Source of the DNA: Escherichia coli
GTDB taxonomy: Bacteria > Pseudomonadota > Gammaproteobacteria > Enterobacterales > Enterobacteriaceae
NCBI RefSeq assembly: GCF_041886205.1
Contig: NZ_CP169029.1
Length of the DNA stretch: 64,000 bases
Reading direction: 5' to 3' (one strand)
Part shown: positions 10,885-35,715 of the stretch, in pieces
Layout: every line of letters starts with the position of its first letter
Position numbering within the stretch: the stretch's first letter is position 1
Position numbers and translations under genes: made by a program
The notes under the pieces: generated by a model
The model's database searches: none
What the model was told of the DNA's origin: nothing
Seen by the model: the letters and a program-made list of their open reading frames with translations, nothing else

Positions 10885-11016
10885 CATATCTCCCTTATCT
10901 GGACCGATGGCCCACGATAATTTAGCAGAATGTTAACAAACTAAAATACACAAAACTACCAGAACCCCGTGGCAACCGGTGCCTGATGTTGACCGTCCGA
11001 ACAGTCAACATCGCGA

Positions 11017-29407: not shown

Positions 29408-30010
29408 ATGGAAGCGCGAATTTCAACTGAACGGCATGTGCAGCGCCAACAGAAATTGAAGGAACAGGTCGATACGCGCGTCGCGGCGGCGATAGAGAAA
29501 AAAGGGATCTTGATTGTTTTCACCGGCAACGGCAAAGGGAAATCCACTGCCGCGTTTGGTACTGTGACGCGCGCGGTGGGTCATGGCAAAACGGTGGGGG
29601 TTGCGCAGTACATCAAGGGGCAATGGGACAACGGCGAATACAACCTTCTCCAGCCGCTGGGGGTTGAGTTTCATATTATGGGAACCGGTTTTACCTGGGA
29701 GACACAGAACCGGCAAGCGGATATCGACGCGGCGAAAGAGGTCTGGTCGGAAAGCAAACGGATGCTGGCTGACAAGCGTTACGACTTAGTGGTGCTTGAT
29801 GAGCTGACCTATATGCTGGCTTACCATTATCTGGATACCGAAGAAGTGATCGCTTCTCTGCAAAACCGCCCGGCACAACAAAGTGTCATTGTCACCGGAC
29901 GCGGTTGCCACAGTCAGATATTAAAAATGGCGGATACGGTAAGCGAAATCCGTCCCGTCAAACATGCTTTTGATAACGGCATTCAGGCCCAGCCGGGTAT
30001 CGACTGGTAA
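29408..30010 (+). CDS. cob(I)alamin adenosyltransferase (CobA/BtuR family) paralogue
   Basis: 200 aa with P-loop GNGKGKSTAAFG and strong similarity along its length to remembered E. coli BtuR; last gene of the operon. Confidence 0.88.
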   Translation: MEARISTERHVQRQQKLKEQVDTRVAAAIEKKGILIVFTGNGKGKSTAAFGTVTRAVGHGKTVGVAQYIKGQWDNGEYNLLQPLGVEFHIMGTGFTWETQNRQADIDAAKEVWSESKRMLADKRYDLVVLDELTYMLAYHYLDTEEVIASLQNRPAQQSVIVTGRGCHSQILKMADTVSEIRPVKHAFDNGIQAQPGIDW

Positions 30011-30043
30011 TAACTGCGCCTGGCATCCCGCCAGGCGCAGGTT

Positions 30044-30949
30044 TTACATCTCCTGCGGTACGACCGATTTCACCAGCAACCATTCACGAAATTGCTGCAA
30101 GTGCGGTGAGTCAGACTTCTCTTCCTGCCACGTCATAATAAAACGATTACCGGTACGAATAGGCACATCACAGGGGATCACCATATCGCCACTATCCAAA
30201 TCATGTTGAATAGCGAACCGTGGTAACAGCGCCACGCCGAGATTAGAGCGCACGGCGGCAATCAGCATTGAAAGCAAATCGAAACGTGGTCCGTTGTTGA
30301 CCAGCGGACTGCTAACGCCAGATAAAGCAAACCACTCTTCCCAGCCAGTAATACGGGTGCTTTGATGCAGAAGTGGTAACTCAGTAAGCAGTTCTGCCAC
30401 TGACAGTTTTTGATCGGACATTGCAAGCAAACTGCCACTGCATACCGGCAAAATCTCCTCTTCAAAGAGATATTCTACTTCCGCCCAGGGCGCGCAAAAA
30501 TTTTCGCGCATAATGACAGCATCGTACTCCCGATTAAGAAAATCGCCGTTATTAGCTAAAGAATGAATATTAACAATAATATCGGGATGTAACTTTGTGA
30601 ATTCATGTAAATTTGGGATTAACCAGTGGGTACTAAAAGTAGGATTAACGGCAAGTTCAATAACCTGAACCGTAGGCTGCCAGGTCATAATGGTATTGGT
30701 ATCGCGTTCCAGCTTATTTAATGTTTCTTTTACTATCCCCAGGTAATACTTCCCTGCATCATTAAGAAAAATGCGTTTTTTAGAGTGTGAAAATAATGGA
30801 GTATGTAAAAATTCCTCCAGCGCACTTACTTGTCTGAATACAGCACTTTGGGTTAACGCTAACTCCTCTGCCGCTCTGGTATAACTTTCATGACGTGCGA
30901 CGACCTCAAAAGTCACCAGCAGTTCCGTTTTAGGTATTTTCCCTCGCAT
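30044..30949 (-). CDS. LysR-family transcriptional regulator
   Basis: 301 aa; N-terminal HTH (ESYTRAAEELALTQSAVFRQVSALEEFL) and LysR substrate-binding domain; convergent with the catabolic operon, divergent from the RtcB-like gene. Confidence 0.88.
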   Translation of the reverse strand: MRGKIPKTELLVTFEVVARHESYTRAAEELALTQSAVFRQVSALEEFLHTPLFSHSKKRIFLNDAGKYYLGIVKETLNKLERDTNTIMTWQPTVQVIELAVNPTFSTHWLIPNLHEFTKLHPDIIVNIHSLANNGDFLNREYDAVIMRENFCAPWAEVEYLFEEEILPVCSGSLLAMSDQKLSVAELLTELPLLHQSTRITGWEEWFALSGVSSPLVNNGPRFDLLSMLIAAVRSNLGVALLPRFAIQHDLDSGDMVIPCDVPIRTGNRFIMTWQEEKSDSPHLQQFREWLLVKSVVPQEM

Positions 30950-31539
30950 AATGCCTTCCGTGAAAAAAATAACAATTCAAAAATTATTTTATAAAAAACA
31001 GTAGCACTAATGAATATCATAATTCAAATAAACAAACCAGTCAGCTATATGTCCAACCAGAAAAATAAAGTGACAATAATCCTAAAACAGTAATTTCACC
31101 TCAGTTATCCACATGCAATACTTTAAAAATATTATTGCAAGAATATTATTCATATACATGAATATACTCTAAATAAGTCGAGTTGCAGGAAGGGAACAAA
31201 TAATGAATCTCCAGAAGATTACATAAGTAAGTGACCTGGGTGAGCGAACATCGATGCAGCACATGCAACTTGAATTATGACAAGTATACAATGATAAATT
31301 TAGATACCCTATGTTATATATTATCTATGTCCGGTTAAATTGAATGAGTCATGGCCTTAAAAGACTTCGCAAAAGATTATTTCTCTTTAACAATAAGCCA
31401 GATTTACCACTTGTAAAAATTGCTATCGCCACATACACTACGCGCGTTTTCTTTCCCTTTTGCTGGCTGCTGACCGGAAAGACAAAATTACCCTCGCAAT
31501 ACAGGGGGGTGTTTAACGTCTATATTTCAGGATAGCGTT

Positions 31540-32937
31540 ATGCATCATCTTTCAAGGTTTGATAAAGCCTTTCTGCGCAAAGGGATCCAACTTTCCCGCG
31601 CCAACAATATTGTTTCATTATCTCGTCCATCAGGTGCCAGTGCCCGCGTACTGTTGCCGGACGAACTGCCACTGGAAGAAAAAGCAGTGACACAACTGCT
31701 TGATTTTGCAGAAGTGAAGCTACCAGACCATCCAGGTTATGTACGCCAGACGTGCGCGACGCCAGATTTTCACCCCGGCAATGGCGTCCCCGTTGGCGCG
31801 GTGGTGGCCTCAACGCCGGATTTAGTCATTCCCGCCGCCATCGGCACCGATATTTCTTGCGGCATGCGGCTGCTAACGACTGGATTAACACTTGAACAAG
31901 CCGAAGCGCATAAAGACGTCATCACTCAGCGGTTAACGCAAGTGCTACTGCAAAATGAGCGCGATGTTCCGTTATCCGCACAGGCGTTCACCGCGCTTTT
32001 TGATGGCGGACCGGCAGATTGCGTGTCGACCTTGCCATCAGCAGGTCTCTGGACACGCATGAATATCCCCCGAATGGTACAAGAGATTGACCGCTGCATT
32101 GGGCTTAACGAGCATAACAGTCACTCGCGTTATGCCCCACCCGCCCTGCTGGCAACGGACCGCGCATTACTCCGCGACCCTTGTCTGGGTACGCCGGGTT
32201 CAGGTAATCATTTTATTGAACTTCAGGTAGTTGATAGCGTGATCGATCGCCATGTAGCCTGGCAACAAGGGCTGAAAACGGGCGATATCGTGGTGATGAT
32301 CCACAGTGGATCGCGAGATGTTGGCTTTTACGTCGGAAGACGCTGGATGGATCGCGCCCGTGCTGAATGGCCCATCGGACATAAACATCCACAAAGCGGG
32401 TTATATGGTCTGGCAGGCGGACTGGCGGAGGAATATCTACAAGCGATGGGAATGGCGGCGCGTTACGCATGGTTAAATCGCGTGACCATTGCGGAAATGG
32501 TTCGCGTATGTTTTGCCGATTTATTTCATCAGGATGATTCACATCTGGTGGTGGATGTGCCGCATAACATCATCCTTCGCGAACATGAAATGAATATTCA
32601 TCGCAAAGGTGCAACACCGGCACACGCGGGCGCTCTGGCATTAATCCCCGGTTCAATGGGCGATTATACGTGGCTTGCGGTAGGTTGCGGCAACCCGGAG
32701 TGGTTGTGGTCATGCAGTCACGGAGCAGGACGCAGCCAGCGTCGGCAGGCCATGCGCTCACGCGCGACTGAAGAGTCAACGCTGCCGTGGCAATGCGTCA
32801 CATTGCGTGAAGAACGACGTCTTGAAGAAGCGCCAGCTGCTTATAAAGATATTGCTCCGGTTATCGAAGCCCAACAAGAAGCTGGATTGATTCAGCCTGC
32901 GGTCAGATTTCGACCGTGGTTAACGTTTAAGGGGTAA
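31540..32937 (+). CDS. RtcB-family RNA ligase paralogue with ~55 aa N-terminal extension
   Basis: 465 aa; RtcB motifs DFHPGNG, IPAAIGTDISCGMR, GSGNHFIELQ, HSGSRDVG, IPGSMGDY, SCSHGAGR, AYKDI line up with remembered E. coli RtcB. Confidence 0.85.
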   Translation: MHHLSRFDKAFLRKGIQLSRANNIVSLSRPSGASARVLLPDELPLEEKAVTQLLDFAEVKLPDHPGYVRQTCATPDFHPGNGVPVGAVVASTPDLVIPAAIGTDISCGMRLLTTGLTLEQAEAHKDVITQRLTQVLLQNERDVPLSAQAFTALFDGGPADCVSTLPSAGLWTRMNIPRMVQEIDRCIGLNEHNSHSRYAPPALLATDRALLRDPCLGTPGSGNHFIELQVVDSVIDRHVAWQQGLKTGDIVVMIHSGSRDVGFYVGRRWMDRARAEWPIGHKHPQSGLYGLAGGLAEEYLQAMGMAARYAWLNRVTIAEMVRVCFADLFHQDDSHLVVDVPHNIILREHEMNIHRKGATPAHAGALALIPGSMGDYTWLAVGCGNPEWLWSCSHGAGRSQRRQAMRSRATEESTLPWQCVTLREERRLEEAPAAYKDIAPVIEAQQEAGLIQPAVRFRPWLTFKG

Positions 32938-33029
32938 CTGAAATGATAAATGGCCTGCGGTTCTCACGCAGGTCAAATCTGGTATCTGCGTAAGCTAACA
33001 AACTTGTTTATCAACAATTTCAGGCCATC

Positions 33030-33058
33030 CGAAGATGGCCTGAAATTATTGCCCCCCT
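33030..33058. terminator. hairpin downstream of mngB (ttcaggccatc-cgaa-gatggcctgaa)
   Basis: Perfect 11-bp stem directly after the mngB stop, flanked by A/T tracts; it also lies just past the right end of the insertion. Confidence 0.55.
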
Positions 33059-33081
33059 TAGATACACTTTTAGCGCAATAA

Positions 33082-35715
33082 TCAGCCAAGGCGGTAGATA
33101 AATGTCCGTGACTGCCCCGGTAAAAATGCCCCCAGTTCCTTTAAATTATCTCTTTCCGCTGTGCTGATGCTTTCATCCATCATCGTTTGCGTACATGAAA
33201 TCACCTCACGACTGAACGCGACAGTTGCCTCACAGGTTGTCGATTCTGCCGGATTAAACAGTCGCAATACCACTTCTTGCCGGTCTTCCGCTTTTTTAAG
33301 AGCGCTAATCAGGCATCCCACAGGAGGCATTTTCAGCAAGCTATGGCTTTCCGGCACATTGAATCCGGCTTTATTTAACTTCATCGCATCCCATGGGATT
33401 TTGTTGTAACACTGTACTGGCGTCAGCCATGCACGCGCCTGCTGGGCTACACCGGCGGTCGCAGGCGTACCTGTATAACTAAATAAGCTCAGACGGCAGC
33501 TAAAGGAGCCACGTAATTGTGAATCGGGCACCGGCATTTTTATGCCTGAAGGACGTCCAGGCCTTAAGAGCAGATCTTCTTTGCCCAGTAAGCCCACGCC
33601 ACGCAGCAACGTAATGGCAAAGGTTTTCTTCTCTTCACCGATGACTTCGAATTCACGTAGCCCTTCGCTAAAGACAGCCAGACCGTTACGCCCTTCCTGT
33701 AAGGCAGCATAGTTGAGCATATTCCATACCGGAACAGGCGCTTCTTTCCAGCCTTCTTGTTGCCAGACATCCATCGCACTGTCGCTCACCGGGCGCGTTA
33801 GTGAACCAAACTGGGTATCGGCCAGAACACTGTCGGTGTTAAAAGGTGTAGGGACCAGGACGCGAAGGCGATGATCGTCAGCCTGGTTATCAAGGTTGAT
33901 ATCCACATCAATACGTCTGCTGTTATCACTCAGAGTGACAACCAACTCCACCCCTACTCTGCCAGTGGATTGCCGGGCGCTGCGTTCTGACAAATTGAGC
34001 GGCACTGCCATGTCATAGCGGATAACAGCCCTGCTCTGCCAGGCTTCATGAATAATATCGCATTGCGGTTTCGCGTTCGCCGCGGTAATTACCCACTCTT
34101 CTTTTGCGGGTGAATAGTCATATTCATCACCATCATCAGAGCTTTCTTCAATTTGCAACACCCGGTCATAGCGCACACCGCTATCTTTATCTACCAGTTG
34201 TAGCGTTCCATCCTCATTGAGCGCAATTTGCCAGAAAGCATTTTCCAGTATCCCTTCAGCGTTACTTTTTGCCGCAATCACGTTGCCAGGCTGATTCGCT
34301 TCGATATAAAGCGTGCGATAGCCCATAGAAGGGACAATCTGGTTGATCTGTATATCAAACTCCATAAAGGGATCGTAATTACCGTAATGAACGATTTGCC
34401 GATCGATTAGGCCAGGATCGATCTCACGGGCATGGCGAATAAAATACGGCACAGGATGACCGCGATCGTCCCGTAAATTAAACTGGCTGGCGCGCAGGCG
34501 CACAGTGGTGTTAATCACTTCTTCTCGCGGCCAGGGCATCAGGTTAAACAGGACGAGTTTGTCGGCGTCGCTCTGCGGCATGTTGTCGGCGATTTTACGC
34601 ATATAGAAACGAATCAGATTATCCGCCATGTCTTCAGCCAGTTCGAAGCGGGCGACGATTTCGCGATGAACTTTGTCACTGCAACAACAACCGATGCTGT
34701 CGTGGGCATGATTTTTTAAGATCTCTTTCCACATTTTCTCCAGCAAGCCGTGGTGGTATTCAAAACCCAACGTCCAGGCCAGCGTTGCCAGCGGTTCCAG
34801 CAGATTAACAATCTTATTTTCAATACGTGCGTGGGCAACTTTGATATCCATGCGCGTGGAACCGATGGTGCGATGTACGCGCATATATTTGCCATCAATA
34901 AATTCACCTTTCAGGGTCGCCAGACTTTCACGCTGCGCTTCAATCTGCTCGAATACCTCTTCAAAGCGGCTCATCACAAACTTTCGTTGAGGATAAATTT
35001 CGCGAAGTTTCTCCATCACTTCGAAGATATTTTGCTGCAATGGCATCTGGTCATGACCATTCGGCAGCAAAATCTCTTTGGTTACTGACGCTTTTTCCAG
35101 CACGTCAAAATAGCTGTCGAGGCGTTTACGTAATCCGTCTTCGTCCGCAGGTAAGTACTTACCGATGGCATAACCCAACGGCAGCACCTGCGCCGTCACT
35201 TCGCTACCGTCACTGCTTTGCCACAAAAACTCGGTTTTATCCGTACCGTGGCGCTCAGAACATCCGCGCCAGAACATGGTGCGGGTAATGCCAAATCCAT
35301 TGTAGATATGCGGCAGTTGCCCGGACATGCCAAAGGAATCCGGTAAATAACCTATTTTCATCGGCTCGCCAAACGCGAGGCAGTCACGCATTCCGTACAT
35401 CAGATTACGGACGATGGATTCCGCAGAAACAATCGTGGTATCGGTCTGGGTATACCAAGGGCCGATAATCAACTTGCCGGCTTCTACCAGTTTCTTCACG
35501 CGGTCTTTGTTTTCCGGTTTCACCGCGAAATAATCTTCGAGGATCGCCGTTTGCCCGTCGAGTACGTAATATTTGTATTCGTTGTCCTGTTCCAGTCGGC
35601 ACAGGATCTCTTCCATATTATTGACCAGCAGAATGCGTGACTCTTCGGTGGTGAAATACCACTCCCGATCCCAATGCATATGCGGGGTGATGTGAACGCG
35701 AGATACCGCTTTCAT
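33082..35715 (-). CDS. mngB: mannosylglycerate hydrolase (alpha-mannosidase, GH38)
   Basis: 877 aa; matches MngB. Confidence 0.9.

Follow-up and report, generated by a model that had tools for sequence, protein, structure and literature searches.

A stand-alone RtcB-family RNA ligase gene of Escherichia coli and a conserved structured leader that may gate its translation

A 64,000-nucleotide segment of the Escherichia coli chromosome (contig NZ_CP169029.1; hereafter the window) carries a gene for a LysR-type transcriptional regulator (30044-30949, minus strand) and, divergent from it across a visibly AT-rich gap of 590 bp, a gene for a 465-amino-acid (aa) protein of the RtcB family of RNA ligases (31540-32937, plus strand). 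RtcB enzymes depend on GTP and Mn2+ and join ends bearing a 2',3'-cyclic phosphate or a 3'-phosphate to 5'-OH ends. To our knowledge, the targets and the expression control of bacterial RtcB proteins are known only for the RtcR/sigma-54 operon and for the PrfH-coupled RtcB2. The locus raises the question whether the LysR protein controls the ligase gene and, if it does not, what does. An original prediction, made from the letters of the window, had left two alternatives: either the LysR protein serves the catabolic island next to it and the RtcB paralogue is unrelated, or the two form a separate regulator-ligase module. The explanation that we favour, at a probability of roughly 60%, is that the ligase gene is a stand-alone mobile unit which is independent of the LysR regulator and whose translation is gated by a structured leader in its own mRNA.

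The ligase gene and its unrelated neighbours

The 465-aa protein is almost certainly an RtcB-family 3'-phosphate/5'-OH RNA ligase with intact catalytic residues, its predicted ligation chemistry following from the family and from those residues. The Pfam RtcB model (PF01139) matches residues 63-465 along positions 7-426 of its 426 positions (E=5.8e-95). The metal and GMP ligands D104, C107, N223-H224, H255, H342 and H394 (the last within SCSHGAGR) are present and align with D75, C78, N167-H168, H185, H281 and H337 of the housekeeping RtcB of E. coli K-12, and RtcB of Pyrococcus horikoshii aligns as well. Throughout the subfamily alignments the metal-binding Asp, Cys and His residues do not vary, nor does the GMP-accepting His; the catalytic roles of these residues (two metals, GMP acceptor) are taken from the literature. 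The conserved RtcB metal- and GTP-binding motifs that had been read from the sequence are borne out by these alignments, and the gene is intact, with no loss of a catalytic ligand.

An AlphaFold2 model of the protein (predicted local distance difference test, pLDDT, 85.5; predicted template modelling score, pTM, 0.89) is matched by Foldseek over its full length to P. horikoshii RtcB (4dwq; template modelling score, TM, 0.78) and to human RTCB (8odo; TM 0.80) at E ~1e-29, with superpositions in the range of TM 0.78-0.81. The archaeal and human enzymes (PH1602 and human RTCB) thus resemble the E. coli protein in full-length fold, and they do so in length and N-terminal strands too, but identity over the structural alignment is 22-27%, the accessory gene has no archease or tRNA-splicing context, and its product has ~10 extra N-terminal residues with a predicted short helix at residues 6-13. 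The extension of ~55 aa at the N-terminus that had been proposed is overstated. Residue 43 corresponds to residue 20 of K-12 RtcB, an offset of ~23 aa, and residue 40 to residue 30 of the P. horikoshii protein, an offset of ~10 aa, while the further excess in length over the K-12 enzyme consists of internal insertions; the figure of ~55 aa reflects the point where the Pfam model begins and is not a property of the protein. An extra N-terminal domain was rejected on account of these small offsets and of the full-length fold match. A length of 462-470 aa is normal in the large subfamily (54-67% identity) to which the protein belongs, and which is found in Pseudomonas aeruginosa, Burkholderia, Ralstonia, Variovorax, Comamonas, Janthinobacterium, Gilliamella, Snodgrassella, Xenorhabdus, Pectobacterium and others.

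How does this enzyme relate to the RtcB systems already described in E. coli? At 29% identity to the K-12 housekeeping RtcB it is not a recent duplicate of it, as had been correctly predicted. The two share family and fold, identical metal-binding and GMP-accepting residues and presumably the same ligation chemistry. Whereas the K-12 gene belongs to rtcBA and is controlled by the sigma-54 activator RtcR, neither an adjacent rtcA with a divergent RtcR gene nor orthology to K-12 RtcB was found for the accessory gene, which has a predicted sigma-70-type promoter and a structured leader rather than a CARF-domain activator. They also differ in their spread: among 5,426 complete E. coli genomes, the set used for all pan-genome counts given here, the canonical rtcB occurs in 4,857 and the accessory gene with its leader in 300, always as one chromosomal copy. 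The second system is the RtcB2-PrfH ribosome-repair module of E. coli ATCC 25922, and among RtcB paralogues of E. coli the papers searched cover no others than RtcB1 and RtcB2 (PMC9304027, PMC9223846). The protein resembles RtcB2 in being an accessory RtcB paralogue of some E. coli strains and in a partial similarity to TIGR03073 (release_rtcB); however, it scores 167.9 bits against a cutoff of 271.8, it is ~90-100 aa longer than the two NCBIfam profiles (356 and 379 positions) and no prfH lies beside it. Since the defining neighbours and scores are missing, the accessory RtcB falls outside both the rtcBA-rtcR and the RtcB2-PrfH systems. It defines a third, widespread, stand-alone RtcB type, present in ~5% of E. 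coli genomes. The enzyme family is a known one, placed here under what appears to be a previously undescribed and widely conserved leader with a putative riboregulatory role. A literature search found no paper on the rtcB leader or on a third E. coli RtcB type.

The accessory rtcB is a genuinely stand-alone gene, with unrelated neighbours in every lineage examined. In the window it lies between the LysR gene and mngB, and rtcA, rtcR and prfH are absent from the annotated neighbourhood, in agreement with the original prediction. The neighbours are nuo, methyltransferase and transporter genes in P. aeruginosa, NmrA and DUF2848 genes in Burkholderia, dmsABC and DUF3788 in an enterobacterial lineage and FIST and oxidase genes in Variovorax; a relative with 86% identity has hut neighbours, and one with 82% identity has yibQ and a glycosyltransferase gene. 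No conserved protein partner of rtcB was found across Pseudomonas, Burkholderia, Variovorax and two enterobacterial contexts. The comparison of paralogue neighbourhoods upholds the lack of rtcA, rtcR and prfH, and it yields no LysR partner that is conserved in other species.

A search for defence systems with PADLOC gave no match for the LysR or the RtcB protein, and PHROGs returned only a generic 'tRNA splicing ligase'. A phage origin of the gene was rejected: IMG/VR contained only five distant relatives (40-46% identity), two of them preceded by the leader, and the E. coli locus lies outside any prophage.

A conserved structured leader

When the 250 nt upstream of the rtcB start codon are compared across loci, the last ~95 nt before the AUG are strikingly similar in E. 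coli, Pseudomonas, Burkholderia and Variovorax. A total of 288 relatives were found across the reference genomes of ~100,000 species, and a scan of one genome per species contributed 80 further rtcB loci, giving 86 in all. In 84 of these 86 loci an invariant GCTGCTG lies 61-133 nt before the start codon, and these 84 come from more than 80 species of Beta- and Gammaproteobacteria; the two loci that lack it are a truncated match and a metagenome-assembled genome of the Peptococcaceae. The same heptamer precedes two relatives that share 44-45% protein identity. A search against Rfam 15 at E <= 1 gave no match in window positions 29900-33200 or over the leader in six other loci. The only constant companion of the stand-alone gene is, in other words, a structured mRNA leader with no counterpart in Rfam, a new candidate class of cis-regulatory RNA with an unusually strict invariant loop of 7 nt. 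That it is a functional RNA element is very likely.

In the window the leader is predicted to span ~94 nt (31446-31539, plus strand), as judged from the motif, a covariance model and the minimum free energy (MFE). The covariance model matches 31444-31542 with 20.9 bits, and the MFE is -29 kcal/mol (z = -2.28). Directly upstream lies a putative sigma-70 promoter (31411-31439, plus strand) composed of a -35 box TTGTAA (31411-31416), a 17-nt spacer and a -10 box TACACT (31434-31439). A -10-like box occupies the same position before the first hairpin, P1, in Pseudomonas, Burkholderia, Variovorax and an enterobacterial lineage, and the leaders of Pectobacterium and Gilliamella have a strong sigma-70 promoter directly upstream (TTTACA-17-TAGAAT, 10/12).

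The elements of the leader follow one another on the plus strand. The 5' arm of P1, strand a (UCUUUCC, 31450-31456), starts ~10 nt past the -10 box and pairs with the purine strand a' (GGAAAGA, 31476-31482) at -9.2 kcal/mol. Between them is the P1 loop segment GCUGGCUGCUG (31462-31472), which includes the heptamer GCUGCUG (31466-31472) that is invariant in the alignments. Strand a' may alternatively pair with a downstream pyrimidine-rich strand, a'' (GUCUAUAUUU, 31518-31527), at -5.1 kcal/mol, a partnership brought out by the partner-swap test described below. An inner hairpin (ACCCUCG...CAGGGGGG, 31490-31509) is variable in sequence and conserved in structure across species, and its helix, P2, covaries strongly. 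Immediately before the start codon the anti-loop or ribosome-binding segment CAGGAUAGC (31528-31536) is complementary to the P1 loop, with GCUG at 31462-65 facing UAGC at 31533-36 and CUG at 31467-69 facing CAG at 31528-30. The loop/anti-loop helix shows a natural variation at 31533, which is T in the window and C in strain PT62 and in four of the compared loci (L003, L004, L012 and L013): the U-to-C change turns a G-U into a G-C pair and strengthens the helix from -6.8 to -8.7 kcal/mol. The C also destroys the stop codon of a 63-codon reading frame that is discussed further below.

A plain MAFFT alignment of all leaders left the arms unaligned, and covariance models seeded with single clades were used instead, together with a partner-swap test. 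Of 46 non-redundant leaders, 45 form P1 (a:a'), from arms as diverse as UCUUUCC/GGAAAGA, UUCCGC/GCGGAA, CCCUCUA/UGGAGGG, GCGCGC/GCGCGC and CAUUC/GAAUG; P1 is 90% paired, with compensatory changes in all seven of its pairs across species. In the model-based alignment P1 and the inner P2 are 85.4% paired against 66.1% in shuffled controls, with a covariation of 0.451 against 0.176 (reached in 0 of 500 shuffles) and 0.085-0.187 in slid controls, and 11 of 11 pairs have changed on both sides. Unconstrained MFE folding and RNAalifold often favour a rod, in which GCUGCUG pairs with the anti-loop (helix H1) and a' with a'' (helix H2) while arm a is free. RNAalifold predicts H1 and H2 together with compensatory pairs, and the rod is 89.0% paired (80.1% in shuffles) with a covariation of 0.344 (0.207; 0 of 500). 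Treated as a pseudoknot, in an alignment not fitted to it, H1 is 82.9% paired, and its changes are essentially all one-sided and compatible with wobble pairing; across species it is 83-92% paired, again with only wobble-type changes, as is expected because one of its strands is invariant.

The partner-swap test is free of any alignment and compares the pairing energy of each strand with its own partner and with swapped partners over 5000 permutations. Own partners are better than swapped ones for P1 (-9.5 vs -7.6 kcal/mol), H2 (-9.2 vs -7.1) and H1 (-11.6 vs -10.8), with 0 of 5000 permutations reaching the observed value in each case and two null negative controls. A contiguous helix of at least 6 bp between the loop and the segment before the AUG is found in 72% of the leaders and 16% of shuffles, mostly ending 0-5 nt from the AUG. 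Two covariance models derived from a single clade also pick out distant leaders, the one in the window among them, at the right position and on the right strand, and over 0.7 Mb the models find essentially only rtcB 5' ends, with weak off-targets. The best of these (locus L086, 6426) was considered as a second copy of the motif and rejected as a plain terminator.

The leaders of Snodgrassella (Betaproteobacteria; L052 2909-3003) and Gilliamella (Gammaproteobacteria; L027 2908-3003), both bee-gut symbionts, are near-identical, which points to a recent transfer of promoter, leader and gene between the two classes within one habitat. Variovorax, Acidovorax, Delftia, Rubrivivax, Methylibium and their relatives (L010, L018, L021, L022, L037, L074 and others) have expanded leaders of 127-158 nt. 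In these Burkholderiales leaders the stretch from the purine strand to the anti-loop accommodates one or two additional GC-rich hairpins, and they keep P1, GCUGCUG and a CAGCAGC before the AUG.

Possible modes of leader function

The reading that we favour regards the sigma-70 promoter, the ~95-nt structured leader and the coding sequence as one accessory, horizontally mobile unit in which ligase expression would be controlled mainly after transcription start. The leader would begin with hairpin P1 and display the invariant GCUGCUG in its loop, and the loop would pair with the 7-12 nt directly before the start codon and hide the ribosome-binding site (RBS) by default. This pairing could take the form of the nested rod or of an H-type pseudoknot, the latter when P1 is formed, as the loop lengths would permit. 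The purine strand would swap between arm a and the pyrimidine strand a'' and thereby render the leader bistable; P1 and H2 are nearly isoenergetic when averaged over the 46 leaders, which suggests a bistable design typical of RNA switches. We lean towards the view that the leader gates translation by masking the RBS. The repression that the pairing imposes would then be relieved by some signal linked to RNA damage, a link that we propose tentatively and with considerable doubt. If translation is indeed gated in this way, the leader could be used to track down the signal to which RNA repair responds.

Several observations weigh against this reading. The predicted E. coli rtcB promoter matches the consensus at only 8 of 12 positions and was not flagged by a promoter scan, and the transcription start site, the transcript and its regulation are all inferred. 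The covariation counts come from related sequences and from alignments fitted to the structures under test, and are inflated accordingly. With nested pairs only, the drop in RBS accessibility is modest (0.44 vs 0.52), accessibility being lower in 31 of 46 leaders. The loop/pre-AUG helix of E. coli is broken into two short runs (4+3 bp, -6.8 kcal/mol), and its a':a'' pairing is weak, at the -5.1 kcal/mol given above. Only seven contiguous nucleotides are invariant, an invariance for which no explanation tested accounts.

A strictly invariant loop without a conserved neighbouring gene suggests either a partner present in all cells or cleavage at a specific sequence. The substrates of RtcB are exactly what is produced by RNases whose products end in a 2',3'-cyclic phosphate and a 5'-OH. 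That the leader acts as a fuse and reports RNA damage through a cut in its loop is an attractive reading, though an improbable one. In the intact mRNA the GCUGCUG loop would mask the RBS; an endoribonuclease that leaves a 2',3'-cyclic phosphate and a 5'-OH (candidates being a ribotoxin, a toxin-antitoxin RNase, given that the loop contains two GCU triplets, or a HEPN-type nuclease) would cut the exposed loop, destroy the masking helix and set off ligase translation from the 5'-OH fragment. The P1 stem would hold the nicked hairpin together, so that RtcB could reseal its own leader and turn itself off. In a variant, equally speculative, the loop would be titrated by exposed fragments that contain CAGCAGC and stem from an RNA conserved universally, and its invariance would thus be accounted for. 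CAGCAGC occurs in the 530-loop region of 16S rRNA (the 515F primer site), and a 7-mer match to rRNA has a chance of ~1 in 4 of arising by coincidence. The stem-loops of the XBP1 and HAC1 mRNAs are cleaved by IRE1 and ligated by RtcB, whose substrates are breaks in such loops. The rtcB leader resembles them in having a CNGCNG-like mRNA hairpin loop (CUGCUG) in association with RtcB. The likeness goes no further, as IRE1 is absent from bacteria, the loops of the rtcB leader measure 10-19 nt rather than 7, and there is no second matching loop.

Among the other explanations, a metabolite or ion riboswitch, in which a pseudoknotted P1/H1 aptamer would close the RBS upon ligand binding, is unlikely and yet among the two that survive best. 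SAM-II and preQ1-II are small translational riboswitches whose leaders sequester the RBS in a pseudoknot. The rtcB leader is like them in that a hairpin loop pairs with the RBS segment and in being compact and capable of an H-type pseudoknot; the conservation of such a leader including the RBS, the bistable strand exchange, the strong and constitutive-looking promoters and the lack of a conserved protein partner nearby would all suit a riboswitch. It is unlike them in having no Rfam match, in a second and mutually exclusive pairing of a stem strand, and in the invariance of a single contiguous 7-nt block, as the junctions and the other loops vary in sequence and length. Insertions of 40-60 nt are tolerated in Comamonadaceae, and the gene context, which is not conserved, offers no candidate ligand. 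With an invariant core of just seven contiguous nucleotides and such tolerance of large insertions, support for a riboswitch is poor.

Just as unlikely in our estimate is a leader that involves no signal and no switch, namely a stabilising 5' hairpin combined with a constitutive damping of translation that would hold down the level of a ligase which could do harm. Hairpins at the 5' terminus stabilise mRNAs, and P1 is predicted to sit at the very start of the transcript; the modest thermodynamic masking of the RBS, and the fact that no trigger was found, would be in keeping with a damper. It leaves unexplained why the 7-nt loop is invariant across two proteobacterial classes and proteins of 44-95% identity, and why the purine strand has kept two partners that exclude each other.

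Much less probable still is an operator at the level of DNA, an inverted repeat downstream of the -10 box whose central GCTGCTG would be recognised by a repressor. The element does begin ~10 nt past a -10-like box and is an inverted repeat with an invariant centre. However, its arms change wholly while their complementarity is kept (CTTTCC/GGAAAG, GCGCGC/GCGCGC, CATTC/GAATG), which is unlike the evolution of protein half-sites, and many of the pairs are G-U pairs that are valid only in RNA and only on the plus strand. Because the arms covary and so many pairs are G-U, an operator is unlikely; in addition, the complement of the loop is maintained 60-130 nt away, at the AUG, and no regulator gene is conserved nearby.

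Attenuation by an intrinsic terminator is probably not a universal mechanism. The inner hairpin with its U-run resembles a terminator and was flagged as one in Pectobacterium and Gilliamella, but not in E. coli and Burkholderia; the feature is seen in some Gammaproteobacteria only, and attenuation does not appear to be general.

The LysR gene, the 63-codon frame and the setting of the locus

Control of rtcB by the LysR protein from the shared intergenic region is a highly improbable explanation. LysR-type regulators commonly control a divergent neighbour gene, and the divergent orientation in the window recurs in a total of 138 E. coli genomes. However, the LysR gene is present in 1,127 of the 5,426 genomes and rtcB in 300, and the two are adjacent in just those 138. 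The count for LysR matches instead that of the methylaspartate mutase E gene (1,131), and hutU of a local hut operon, which separates LysR from rtcB where it is present, was counted in 145 genomes. Neither co-inheritance nor stable adjacency of LysR and rtcB was found in these E. coli genomes, and other species have no conserved LysR partner. We have little doubt that the LysR gene is unrelated to rtcB and belongs to the methylaspartate (glutamate mutase) island. Of the two alternatives left by the original prediction, the first, which assigns LysR to the catabolic island and leaves RtcB apart from it, is supported, and the regulator-ligase module is refuted.

The LysR protein itself (301 aa, GcvA-like) is a member of the LysR-type transcriptional regulators, with a full-length match of residues 3-294 to the GcvA subfamily of NCBIfam at 220 bits, under the cutoff of 288. 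The reading frames of LysR and RtcB, at the positions given in the opening paragraph, and the 63-codon frame at 31344-31535 are all present as originally described, and so, by inspection, is the AT-rich divergent gap. The region from LysR to rtcB is 100% identical to that of strain wlxctx60, and the NCBI annotation pipeline (PGAP) calls the same two genes in near-identical strains.

The history of the adjacency is recorded in three layouts of the sucD/cydA interval. In the window type, mngRAB and rtcB are followed by the 590-bp gap, LysR and the methylaspartate island. In the type of strain 142, sucD is followed by rtcB, which is divergent from a seven-gene hut operon whose end is LysR. In the O157:H7 type, sucD is followed by LysR, without hut and without rtcB. 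Pairwise BLAST comparisons show that the homology of the window to the hut type and the O157:H7 type ends at 30967, 18 bp past the LysR start codon, and restarts at 31432, and that the DNA upstream of LysR in O157:H7 is common to the hut type. In O157:H7 strain TW14359 the interval between LysR and sucD (locus L002, 10374-10470) holds two short remnants of the rtcB 3' end, equivalent to window positions 32664-32720 and 32894-32932. These remnants indicate that rtcB was lost there by deletion rather than never acquired. The BLAST junctions and the remnants together point to the hut type as ancestral and to the LysR-RtcB 'divergon' as a secondary juxtaposition: as judged from these junctions, the adjacency of LysR and rtcB is a deletion product that arose through loss of the intervening hut operon. 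A mis-annotation as a divergon is thereby corrected to a deletion artefact of the recombination-prone sucD/cydA hotspot.

An AT-rich spacer of 464 bp (30968-31431, delimited by the BLAST junctions), which is found in the window type only, replaces the hut operon of the strain 142 type. The spacer includes an enterobacterial repetitive intergenic consensus (ERIC) or intergenic repeat unit (IRU) element at ~31160-31300, recognised by a site for primer ERIC2 at 31225-31246 with 2 mismatches (0 such sites expected by chance). The 141-bp segment occurs in 5,425 of the 5,426 genomes with a median of 8 copies, and the element is an ERIC/IRU intergenic repeat. Against a shared regulatory region stand this repeat between the two genes, the end of the shared DNA 18 bp past the LysR start codon, the ~460-490 bp that separate the predicted rtcB promoter from the LysR start, and the O157:H7 layout, in which LysR is kept and only remnants of rtcB persist.

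The breakpoints of the layouts (junctions of loci L002 and L003) lie within 18 bp of the LysR start and, on the other side, within ~110 bp upstream of the rtcB unit (31432) and 5 bp into it (32932). Such breakpoints near the LysR start imply that the upstream (promoter) region of LysR differs among lineages, and in hut-type strains LysR may be co-transcribed with the hut operon.

The weakest of the alternatives, a leader peptide encoded by the 63-codon frame (31344-31535, plus strand) or by a shorter upstream open reading frame (uORF) through GCUGCUG that would control rtcB by attenuation, can be set aside, as start, frame and stop are not conserved together across the 46 leaders in any uORF. 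The 63-codon frame ends 4 nt before the rtcB start, and in 33 of 46 leaders some frame that opens with NUG runs across the core, most often in the CUG-CUG phase, a bias that arises because the invariant G supplies the last base of NUG. The other 13 leaders have no start codon at all; the starts that exist are mostly non-AUG and without a Shine-Dalgarno sequence, and the ends and frames vary, with some frames stopping and others running into rtcB. In E. coli the conserved block does not include the first 88 nt of the frame, which also precede the predicted -10 box; strain PT62 has lost the stop (TAG to CAG), the close relatives L012 and L013 have a broken frame, and an NCBIfam search of the 63-codon product gave no match. 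The original prediction had left open whether the frame encodes a leader peptide or is spurious: it is spurious as a reading frame, and the DNA beneath its 3' third is the conserved structured RNA leader.

At the other end of the gene, inspection of the sequence suggests a convergent terminator region between rtcB and mngB (32952-33045), with putative hairpins at 32952-32974 and 33018-33045. The order of genes in the window is galM, tol-pal, cydAB, the accessory island, mngRAB, sucABCD-sdh, gltA and phrB. Two hypothetical genes of low GC content (0.34-0.37), one of them annotated as frameshifted, are located at the far end of the island in the cydA/glmS interval (17972-19419). An anomaly in AT skew (-0.476 in the bin 11001-12000) coincides with tolA on the minus strand (11017-12282) and presumably reflects the repetitive Ala/Lys/Glu-rich domain of that gene.

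Two further RNA matches were noted beside rtcB genes of other species. The interval between nuoN and a methyltransferase gene upstream of P. aeruginosa rtcB (L005 4974-5087, minus strand) contains a weak RsmY-like Rfam match, which with 27 bits against a gathering score of 57 is probably due to chance. In Variovorax (L010 7885-8115, minus strand) a tandem glycine riboswitch (RF00504; 56.6 and 32.8 bits) is found upstream of an FAD-oxidase gene that is convergent with rtcB, and it is unrelated to the rtcB leader.

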